A stretch of DNA of 64,000 nucleotides from a virus. The translations under genes were made by a program, and so were the position numbers. The notes beneath the pieces are model-generated. The model searched no databases and had not been told where the DNA came from. It saw nothing but the letters and a program-made list of their open reading frames with translations. Below are positions 62,395-64,000 of this stretch, in pieces (position 1 is the stretch's first letter; each line of letters starts with the position of its first letter). The stretch covers positions 32,001 through 96,000 of the IMG/VR virus record IMGVR_UViG_3300032308_002092, one strand, 5' to 3'.

Positions 62395-63183
62395 CTACTC
62401 TTGTTGTGCTTTATTGAGATGGTCGGCAGCTGCTCTAGTCCACTCCACGTAGATTTGATCAGGGTACAGTCTGCCGAACCACGTTATGTCGCAGCCCGGA
62501 GTCCAGAAGTACCAGTTCCAGGTAGGGTGGTCGTTTAGCGCGTTGTTCCTAGCTGCTTTAGATCTGTTTGCTTCTTCTTGTAGCTTTTGCAGATCACCTT
62601 TTAGGTAGTAAAGTACTGCGTCTTCCATGCCTCTTATTGTTTCAAAGGCTTTGAGAACGTGTTTCTCCCATAGTTTACCAACGCCGTGTTGTCTATTGAG
62701 CATCAGCGTAGCATAAACTAAGTTCAACTGGTAGTGCTTGTAGACTGTAAGTGCCTCAATCAAAGCAAGTGGGCCTCTCAACCAATTGAGCAAGAAGTAC
62801 CATATGATGCGCCAGCCAGCAAAGTGCATCTTTAGCTTAAGGGTTGGGATACAGGCTATCAGCTGAGCAAACCCCAGTACTCCCAGCTTGTTTCGGCCAT
62901 CTGTGGACGACGGTGTTATCAGCCCACCAGTTTTAACTACGTATCTAAGCATAAGGATGTGGTCGATGGTTGACCCGCCAAGCATAGCACCTAGGAACAT
63001 GTCCCTGCTAGATGAGTTTGGGTAATCCTTTTGCGCTATTGCCGCTTCTGGGTTGCGCCAGACTCTGCCGTCTCGGTCAATGCACTGAGACACGTATAGA
63101 GATGCTTCGTAGTCGCCAACATGAGAAAACATCCCTGCGTATAGGGTGCTGTCGCCATGTACTTCTTTGTATTTTGGGTTCAT
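62395..63183 (-). CDS. Hypothetical protein
   Basis: ORF with AGGAGG RBS; GD....G and SRDM.LG motifs. Confidence 0.6.
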   Translation of the reverse strand: MNPKYKEVHGDSTLYAGMFSHVGDYEASLYVSQCIDRDGRVWRNPEAAIAQKDYPNSSSRDMFLGAMLGGSTIDHILMLRYVVKTGGLITPSSTDGRNKLGVLGFAQLIACIPTLKLKMHFAGWRIIWYFLLNWLRGPLALIEALTVYKHYQLNLVYATLMLNRQHGVGKLWEKHVLKAFETIRGMEDAVLYYLKGDLQKLQEEANRSKAARNNALNDHPTWNWYFWTPGCDITWFGRLYPDQIYVEWTRAAADHLNKAQQE

Positions 63184-63252: not shown

Positions 63253-63312
63253 AGACTCGTCAGTCGCGTATACAACGCGAGACCAAGAGCGTGGCTACTC
63301 TTGGTTTCGTCT
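63253..63312 (-). ncRNA. Type II hammerhead ribozyme (downstream copy), GUC cleavage site
   Basis: Minus strand: AGAC-GAAA-CCAAGAG-loop-CUCUUGG-UC-UCGCGU-loop-ACGCGA-CUGACGA-GUCU; complete core, three stems. Confidence 0.9.
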
Positions 63313-63819
63313 TTAGCCAACCAAAGCCCTAAGGTGCTCTGGGATTGAGGAGAGGTCGAGTTGCTTTGCTTTGTTTTGGCGAGGGGTCTTAGCTGGCTTG
63401 CTAGCTACCATCTCAGCCCTAACATTAGCAATGAAGTTTTTCACTTCAACGATCTTAGTTTCTTCTGCGCCTGAAGCAATAAGATTCTTGAGTACCTCAG
63501 TTGCTTGCTTGATCTGTGGGTTAGTACGGCTACCAGGGTTTTTAGCTTCATACTTGCCGCCGCCGTTGATCTGAGGTGCCTTATTGAACCAGTTAGCTAC
63601 GACGCTAGAAGCGTAAGACCTGAGTGCTTTGTCGTCATCTAGCTTACCAGCCGAGCGCTGTGCCAAGACGACTTCGCCAGAAATGAAGCCTTCAAGCATA
63701 AGGCTAACGATCTCACGACGTTGCTCTTCAGTTACGTACGAAGAAATGGGGGCACTACTATTAAAACTAGAACCAAGGACCTGCTTAGTATACGTTACGA
63801 CCGCTTCATTTTGTTTCAT
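63313..63819 (-). CDS. Hypothetical protein (168 aa) flanked by hammerhead ribozymes
   Basis: Start MKQNEAV with AGGAG RBS; paralogue at 56425; C-terminal LDLSSIPEHL. Confidence 0.7.
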   Translation of the reverse strand: MKQNEAVVTYTKQVLGSSFNSSAPISSYVTEEQRREIVSLMLEGFISGEVVLAQRSAGKLDDDKALRSYASSVVANWFNKAPQINGGGKYEAKNPGSRTNPQIKQATEVLKNLIASGAEETKIVEVKNFIANVRAEMVASKPAKTPRQNKAKQLDLSSIPEHLRALVG

Positions 63820-63843
63820 GGTAAAACTCCTATATAGAAACAT

Positions 63844-63900
63844 TGACTCATCAGTGCTGGAACCTACCAGCAGATACCCTTGGTATCGGGTATTTCGTCA
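63844..63900 (-). ncRNA. Type II hammerhead ribozyme (upstream copy), AUC cleavage site
   Basis: Minus strand: UGAC-GAAA-UACCC-loop-GGGUA-UC-UGCUGG-loop-CCAGCA-CUGAUGA-GUCA; complete core, three stems. Confidence 0.9.
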
Positions 63901-63999
63901 TTAGTCTATTGCTGCGTAGTCATCTGGGAAGAAGGTTTCTTCTTCCATCTGACGGCTATTGAAGTCTAGCTGCTCATACACATCGTCTTCATAGTCGGA
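63901..63999 (-). CDS. 3' end of an acidic hypothetical protein (partial)
   Basis: SDYEDDVYEQLDF...YAAID-TAA. Confidence 0.55.
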   Translation of the reverse strand, partial: SDYEDDVYEQLDFNSRQMEEETFFPDDYAAID

Positions 64000-64000
64000 C

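Follow-up and report, generated by a model that had tools for sequence, protein, structure and literature searches.

Paired type II hammerhead motifs around three paralogous genes of an uncultured phage

A small phage gene, P0001, is bracketed by two type II hammerhead motifs on its own strand, and its two paralogues in the same genome are bracketed in the same way. We consider it likely that these hammerheads are functional and punctuate an early polycistronic transcript, which would yield processed or insulated single-gene messages. The stretch analysed, here called the window, is 64,000 nt long and comprises bases 32001-96000 of a 151,207-bp IMG/VR virus record (IMGVR_UViG_3300032308_002092). 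A first-pass annotation of the window had described two minus-strand hammerheads with their predicted cuts, and our own reading and a descriptor scan agree with it to the base; the 592-nt interval with an AGGAG and a 168-aa ORF, and the TAA stop directly before the first base of each hammerhead, were reproduced as well (Table 1). The observation is thus confirmed and its interpretation is partly supported. The proposed excised mRNA cassette stands in so far as self-excision of a monocistronic RNA follows from hammerhead chemistry; the circle that was also envisaged found no support. The cassette is a further case of a known layout and not a new kind of element.

Table 1. Features of the cassette, hammerheads of the phage genome and hammerheads of related contigs. 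Positions are those of the window unless stated otherwise.
Feature	Position	Strand	Basis or remark
HHR-A, type II hammerhead, leader of the 168-aa gene	63844-63900	-	Read from sequence and descriptor scan
HHR-B, type II hammerhead, 3' of the 168-aa gene, 69 nt upstream of the next ORF	63253-63312	-	Sequence and descriptor scan
Predicted cleavage site A, after C17 at 63873	63872/63873	-	Counted from sequence
Predicted cleavage site B, after C17 at 63281	63280/63281	-	Counted from sequence
Predicted excised RNA, 592 nt	63281-63872	-	Derived from the two predicted cuts
AGGAG ribosome-binding site, 7 nt before ATG	63827-63831	-	Sequence
ORF P0001, 168 aa, of a phage-only, all-helical family without known function	63313-63819	-	ORF and family searches
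Upstream 71-aa ORF, 3' part; TAA abuts HHR-A	63901-64000	-	Start lies beyond the window end
Downstream 262-aa ORF, of which HHR-B would be the leader	62395-63183	-	No family match
CCGATA motif where stem III of HHR-A meets the loop	63884-63889	-	Recurs upstream of many early genes
Six hammerheads of the phage genome (genome positions)	95900-95844, 95312-95253, 104647-104591, 104113-104051, 108036-107980, 107080-107021	-	Descriptor scan
L025, P0001 orthologue (51% protein identity), both flanking ribozymes (contig positions)	771-835 and 1367-1422		Different stems
L030, single cassette-3 gene with a ribozyme on either side			
L021 and L026, first paralogue preceded and second paralogue followed by a ribozyme			2.7-kb multi-gene block enclosed
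L024, three leader ribozymes			
L027 and L019, one leader ribozyme each			

Six hammerheads around three paralogous genes

In the sense of the gene, HHR-A runs UGAC, GAAA, a 6-bp stem III (AUACCC/GGGUAU), C17, a 6-bp stem I (UGCUGG/CCAGCA), CUGAUGA and GUCA, which gives a UGAC/GUCA stem II, an AUC cleavage triplet and a core of CUGAUGA and GAAA. HHR-B has the order AGAC, GAAA, a 9-bp stem III, GUC, a stem I of 5-6 bp, CUGACGA and GUCU, with an AGAC/GUCU stem II, a GUC triplet and the core CUGACGA. The core (CUGANGA, GAAA and an NUH triplet with an A15.1-U16.1 pair) is present in both elements and in all 17 copies compared below, whose triplets are AUC, GUC and, in L025a, GUA. The minimum-energy fold predicted for HHR-A is the three-way junction (z -2.8), and five of the six genome copies fold in this way; the exception is HHR-B, whose catalytic fold, at -19.6 kcal/mol, competes with a fold 3.6 kcal/mol more stable (predicted minimum -23.2 kcal/mol). 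The predicted 3' product of site A begins with U63872, and in the predicted fold of the 592-nt RNA this nucleotide pairs within the stem I hairpin, while the RNA ends with C17, one base past the stem III hairpin. From their sequences, we regard HHR-A and HHR-B as very likely to be real ribozymes.

Because a MAFFT alignment of the hammerheads was not structure-consistent, the scans used our own type II descriptors, with no covariance model. Applied to the whole genome, the descriptor finds six hammerheads, every one intergenic and on the minus (gene) strand, compared with a mean of 0.035 matches in 200 dinucleotide-preserving shuffles of the 151,207-bp sequence. Rfam, which the first-pass annotation had named as a check, recovered the elements in part. 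At the gathering score it gave no match in the window. In a 1-kb search at a relaxed threshold, HHR-A matched RF02276 (Hammerhead_II) with 26.1 bits (E 0.0078; gathering score 37), and HHR-B was absent from the output even then. The cassette-2 leader hammerhead, which lies elsewhere in the genome, reached 29.4 bits, also below gathering. Gathering and relaxed searches of the window, its 18-kb neighbourhood and 29 related loci returned weak type II matches only, and no twister, pistol, hatchet or HDV-like ribozyme. Clear hammerhead copies in relatives were likewise missed, and we therefore conclude that the RF02276 model fits this subclass poorly. Subclass and model have in common the core, a 6-bp stem I and the circular permutation in which stem II is open and the other two stems are closed. 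They differ in stem II, which has 4 bp here (NGAC/GUCN) and 2 bp in the model, and in the pseudoknot-forming 3' tail of the model, whose place is taken here by a Shine-Dalgarno leader; the copies score 26-29 bits against the gathering score of 37, with several unreported.

A pseudoknot between loop I and the 3' tail is typical of fast type II hammerheads. The best complementarity between these two segments amounts to 3.5 bp here, against 3.8 bp in swapped controls, and to 3.2 against 3.2 bp in 147 copies from a wider survey (see below). As this is not above controls, cleavage at cellular Mg2+ could be slow. That stem I is fixed at 6 bp and stem II at 4 bp may point to a tertiary contact of a different kind.

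The six hammerheads form three pairs, each around one paralogue, P0001 (168 aa), P0002 (148 aa) or P0003 (149 aa), with 37-44% identity among the three; an 88-aa ORF shares the third bracket. In the common geometry, a stop codon abuts the ribozyme, the predicted cut precedes the ATG by about 53 nt, and the Shine-Dalgarno site comes after stem II. The trailing ribozymes are each 17-70 nt upstream of the next gene, and a Shine-Dalgarno site and start codon occur within 8-65 nt 3' of every ribozyme, so that each trailing ribozyme doubles as the leader of the gene that follows. Leader (A-type) and trailing (B-type) copies are identical at 42 of 63 positions or fewer, and both hairpin stems differ throughout. 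The three leaders are 81-88% identical to each other and the genes that they precede are 56-64% identical. An exact search of IMG/VR for the conserved leader stem III gave no match outside the phage genome. In cassette 3, two paralogous 88-aa ORFs flank hammerhead 3B (L003:14083-14346 and L003:13737-14003, both minus strand, genome about 106.7-107.3 kb). The inner copy is missing in L030, where 3B lies directly 3' of the family gene, and the two-gene bracket of the phage therefore looks like a local duplication.

P0001 had no named match in Pfam, PHROGs, PDB sequences, the ESM Atlas or Foldseek searches of PDB and BFVD. Its AlphaFold2 model is confident (pLDDT 92), and a wide VIA-align search with it gave generic helical matches only (Z <=6). 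The family has about 600 members, none of them named and all viral or metagenomic; GenBank phages, searched by DNA and by protein, gave no match. Neighbouring genes encode an HNH endonuclease, a lysozyme and, two genes upstream, a member of the SAM-lyase family, which is consistent with an early region. The neighbourhood also holds arrays of small Gly/Asp-rich ORFs (70-110 aa; L003:4933-7668, minus strand, genome about 98-100.7 kb), whose ends are conserved (starting ...LxIDGxGYG and ending PSDW or PSDR) around variable GDG/GYG cores.

Conservation in relatives and occurrence in other phages

Contigs that carry the closest members of the P0001 family have hammerheads at the same junctions, with stems that are different in sequence yet paired (Table 1). 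Among 17 distinct copies from the phage and its relatives the cores are invariant, and each position in stems I and III, with few exceptions, has two to four standard pair types, as have the second and fourth positions of stem II. The first-pass annotation had argued for selection from the differing yet paired stems of the two window copies, and covariation of all three stems in the 17 copies bears this out: at the level of sequence comparison, covarying stems with invariant cores are direct evidence of selection for the fold. As to whether homologues of the gene are also doubly flanked, those in L025 and L030 are, but 16 IMG/VR loci with more distant P0001 homologues have no hammerhead of any type, and a type I/III descriptor run on all family loci found none. 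A P0001-family gene therefore does not need a ribozyme.

Two further observations concern the way in which these elements vary. The 24-nt leader between HHR-A and the ATG (window 63820-63843; L003:2820-2843, minus strand) is identical at 24 of 25 positions in the L025 orthologue, where the coding sequence is 63% and the ribozyme 69% identical. Stem I and stem III modules appear in varied combinations among the hammerheads of L003, L021, L024, L025 and L026. Stem I of 2B, for example, matches L024b and its stem III matches L025b/L026b, and 3B agrees with L026a in stem III but not in stem I. These mosaics suggest that ribozyme copies have undergone recombination or conversion.

IMG/VR was scanned for this hammerhead subclass with an exact pattern, which gave at least 120 loci, in 95 of which the descriptor finds a full type II hammerhead; 29 have two or more. 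They provide 52 same-strand neighbour pairs, 250-3380 nt apart and mostly around a single unrelated small ORF, none of the bracketed ORFs belonging to the P0001 family. Stem II has 4 bp in 114 of the 147 survey copies. In five loci (L032, L043, L055, L079 and L142), four to six type II hammerheads follow one another, one per gene junction, and the stop codons adjoin the 5' strand of stem II or overlap with it. Bracketing of genes by ribozymes is thus not unusual, and IMG/VR contigs often carry hammerheads in series around unrelated genes.

[quoted passage not shown] Comparable prophage arrays were cleaved in vitro and in E. coli, and processing of long phage transcripts was proposed; circular or spliced products were considered and sought, and none was detected (PMC3088659). 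A 2019 review (PMC6765202) presents the same mRNA-processing hypothesis and still lists the function of phage hammerheads as unresolved. The arrays of Perreault et al. and those described here are alike in that same-sense intergenic hammerheads, type II among others, bracket one gene or a short block of phage DNA, and in their position in an early region with anti-restriction genes, represented here by the SAM-lyase gene. They are unlike in that the three brackets here each contain a paralogue of one protein family, whereas the earlier paper stresses that gene identities vary. The present copies also score below the Rfam type II threshold and have no evident loop I/tail pseudoknot, and they are known from sequence alone, whereas the earlier copies were assayed for cleavage. 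The value of the phage is therefore as a comparative case, offering three ribozyme-bracketed paralogues, orthologous brackets with covarying stems and a motif tied to the leader ribozymes only. Although the phage is uncultured, which limits direct testing, the cassette would lend itself to experiments on whether punctuation by ribozymes serves to stabilise phage messages, to insulate them or to time them.

Proposed processing of the transcript and alternative readings

Hammerhead cleavage leaves 5'-OH and 2',3'-cyclic phosphate ends, and in the type II form the cut is flanked by two closed hairpins, stem III and stem I. Since the cores are intact, the stems covary and the double flank is conserved in L025 and L030, self-excision would follow from this chemistry. 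We propose that the six hammerheads punctuate the first ~15 kb of the minus-strand, putatively early, polycistronic transcript, each folding soon after it is transcribed and cutting itself. The upstream fragment would then end in the stem III hairpin and C17 with a 2',3'-cyclic phosphate, and the downstream fragment would start with a 5'-OH, base-paired in the stem I hairpin, 15-25 nt ahead of the Shine-Dalgarno site; the 4-bp stem II, split between the two products, should dissociate. In this way the 168-aa gene would be freed as a 592-nt monocistronic mRNA with a hairpin at both ends, as would its two paralogues. Hairpin-closed ends of this kind should resist end-dependent RNases, and we infer that the freed mRNA would be stable and translated irrespective of its neighbours; where the host has RNase J1, however, decay can be promoted and not blocked by a 5'-OH end, for which glmS is the precedent. 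Points against such punctuation are the sub-threshold Rfam scores, the competing fold of HHR-B, the lack of a loop I/tail signal and the ribozyme-free distant homologues.

Synthetic ribozyme insulators of the RiboJ type place a hammerhead and a hairpin in the 5' UTR and self-cleave just upstream of the ribosome-binding site. The phage elements are similar in that the cut would give a defined, hairpin-capped 5'-OH leader independent of the upstream sequence, and differ in being natural type II hammerheads located at both ends of the gene, with a putative effect on expression.

The first-pass annotation had gone further, suggesting that the ends of the 592-nt RNA might be joined by host RtcB, or by a chimeric hammerhead working in reverse, into an exonuclease-proof, translatable circle. 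The end chemistry would suit both RtcB and hammerhead ligation, a chimeric stem II (with stem III from B and stem I from A) of 3-4 bp can be formed in all three cassettes, and in cassette 1 a 6-bp helix is predicted between nt 25-30 and 553-558 of the excised RNA. However, the chimeric stem II is possible because a GAC/GUC stem II is common to 123 of the 147 hammerheads of the subclass, and for nothing more. Its mean length in the 52 neighbour pairs is 2.94 bp, against 3.02 bp in random inter-locus pairs and 2.69 bp in the opposite, 'splice' chimera; 16 of the 52 pairs allow only 1 bp, and both chimeras of L024 are mismatched at the second (central) pair. Neighbours are no more compatible than random pairs, and the chimera lends the circle no support. 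The 6-bp helix would compete with the chimeric stem II, and neither cassette 2 nor the L025 orthologue has it; more generally, the pairing predicted between the two ends of an excised RNA is weak, and is kept neither between cassettes nor in L025. The whole phage record contains no RtcB or Rnl2-type ligase family, which extends to the genome the earlier, correct remark that the window has no rtcB; an enzyme of the host might still provide the activity. Moreover, L021 and L026 bracket a multi-gene block of 2.7 kb, the ORF has a stop codon and so would gain nothing from rolling-circle translation, and the search for circular or spliced products of similar arrays was negative (PMC3088659). Nothing in our analysis shows that the excised piece becomes a circle, and we hold such an outcome to be very unlikely; if true, the 592-nt RNA and its two paralogous counterparts would be exonuclease-proof early messages of a DNA phage. 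The comparison with retrozymes and viroid-like circular RNAs fares no better. These are also units delimited by two same-sense hammerheads with 5'-OH and 2',3'-cyclic phosphate ends, but the flanking ribozymes here are not near-identical repeats of each other, the pairing of the ends is not conserved, and the unit encodes a protein with its own Shine-Dalgarno site and stop codon within a dsDNA phage operon, with no evidence from folding of the excised RNA of circles, reverse transcription or rod-like pairing.

Cleavage might instead limit or time expression, by shortening the life of one product or uncoupling the downstream genes. Such attenuation would draw on the targeting of 5'-OH ends by RNase J1-type enzymes, a precedent from glmS that is summarised in the 2019 review (PMC6765202), and the competing fold of HHR-B, together with a stop codon that abuts stem II, would let ribosomes or folding kinetics modulate the reaction. 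We nevertheless think it unlikely: hairpins of 5-9 bp close both product ends, the opposite of an exposed entry site, and the same design stands before dozens of unrelated genes, which fits a generic processing signal better than gene-specific repression. The distant homologues that lack hammerheads and the mosaic stem I/III modules among relatives could also be seen as the mark of relics or selfish passengers, spread by gene duplication or recombination and of no use to the phage. Neutral relics would decay, however, and here positions are kept at orthologous junctions, 17 of 17 cores are intact, compensatory changes occur in every helix and stem lengths are fixed, stem II at 4 bp in most survey copies as given above. 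We therefore give this reading hardly any credence, and continue to favour punctuation of the transcript by functional ribozymes.

A motif in the leader ribozymes

The hexamer CCGATA, at the stem III/loop junction of HHR-A, lies on the gene strand within 80 nt upstream of a Shine-Dalgarno site and start codon in 13 of 19 cases, against a background of 21%, the highest value among 174 composition-matched hexamers. Of 12 leader hammerheads, 8 have the related YCCGAW in stem III, and in seven of these it ends exactly 11 nt before the predicted cut; none of five pure trailers has it. YCCGAWA also occurs 31-57 nt upstream of many early-gene starts on the minus strand (examples at genome positions 104858, 104045, 98781, 89443, 85886, 74634, 72977 and 62003).

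One reading of this distribution is that the motif in stem III is a DNA-level phage promoter element, coupled to the leader ribozyme. Local transcripts, lacking the 5' half of the ribozyme, would then stay uncut, and read-through transcripts would be trimmed to nearly the same 5' end. The enrichment before Shine-Dalgarno sites and starts, the confinement of the motif to leaders as against pure trailers, its fixed spacing to the cut and the greater identity of the leader ribozymes (81-88%) than of the genes (56-64%) all speak for a promoter. The enrichment is modest in relatives, however, four leader hammerheads have no motif, the motif is not a sigma-70-type site, and it could equally be a site at which a protein binds the RNA; a scan of the neighbourhood for sigma-70 promoters and terminators gave no excess over shuffles. 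Promoter coupling seems to us decidedly unlikely to be the explanation of the layout. More broadly, the distribution of the motif, the high identity of the leader ribozymes and the 24 of 25 positions shared with the L025 leader suggest that the leader ribozymes contain a promoter or a signal for protein binding, which we offer as a lead and not as a result.

A conserved noncoding element of ~60 nt occurs in four related phages upstream of the first ribozyme-led paralogue (L003:15200-15290, minus strand, equivalent to genome 108200-108290 and outside the window; L021:9710-9800; L024:547-640; L026:1661-1760). It has two CCCGAW motifs, which flank a short GGG/CCC hairpin, and an invariant GCAGAGGCTAG block, and may be an early regulatory region or a small RNA.
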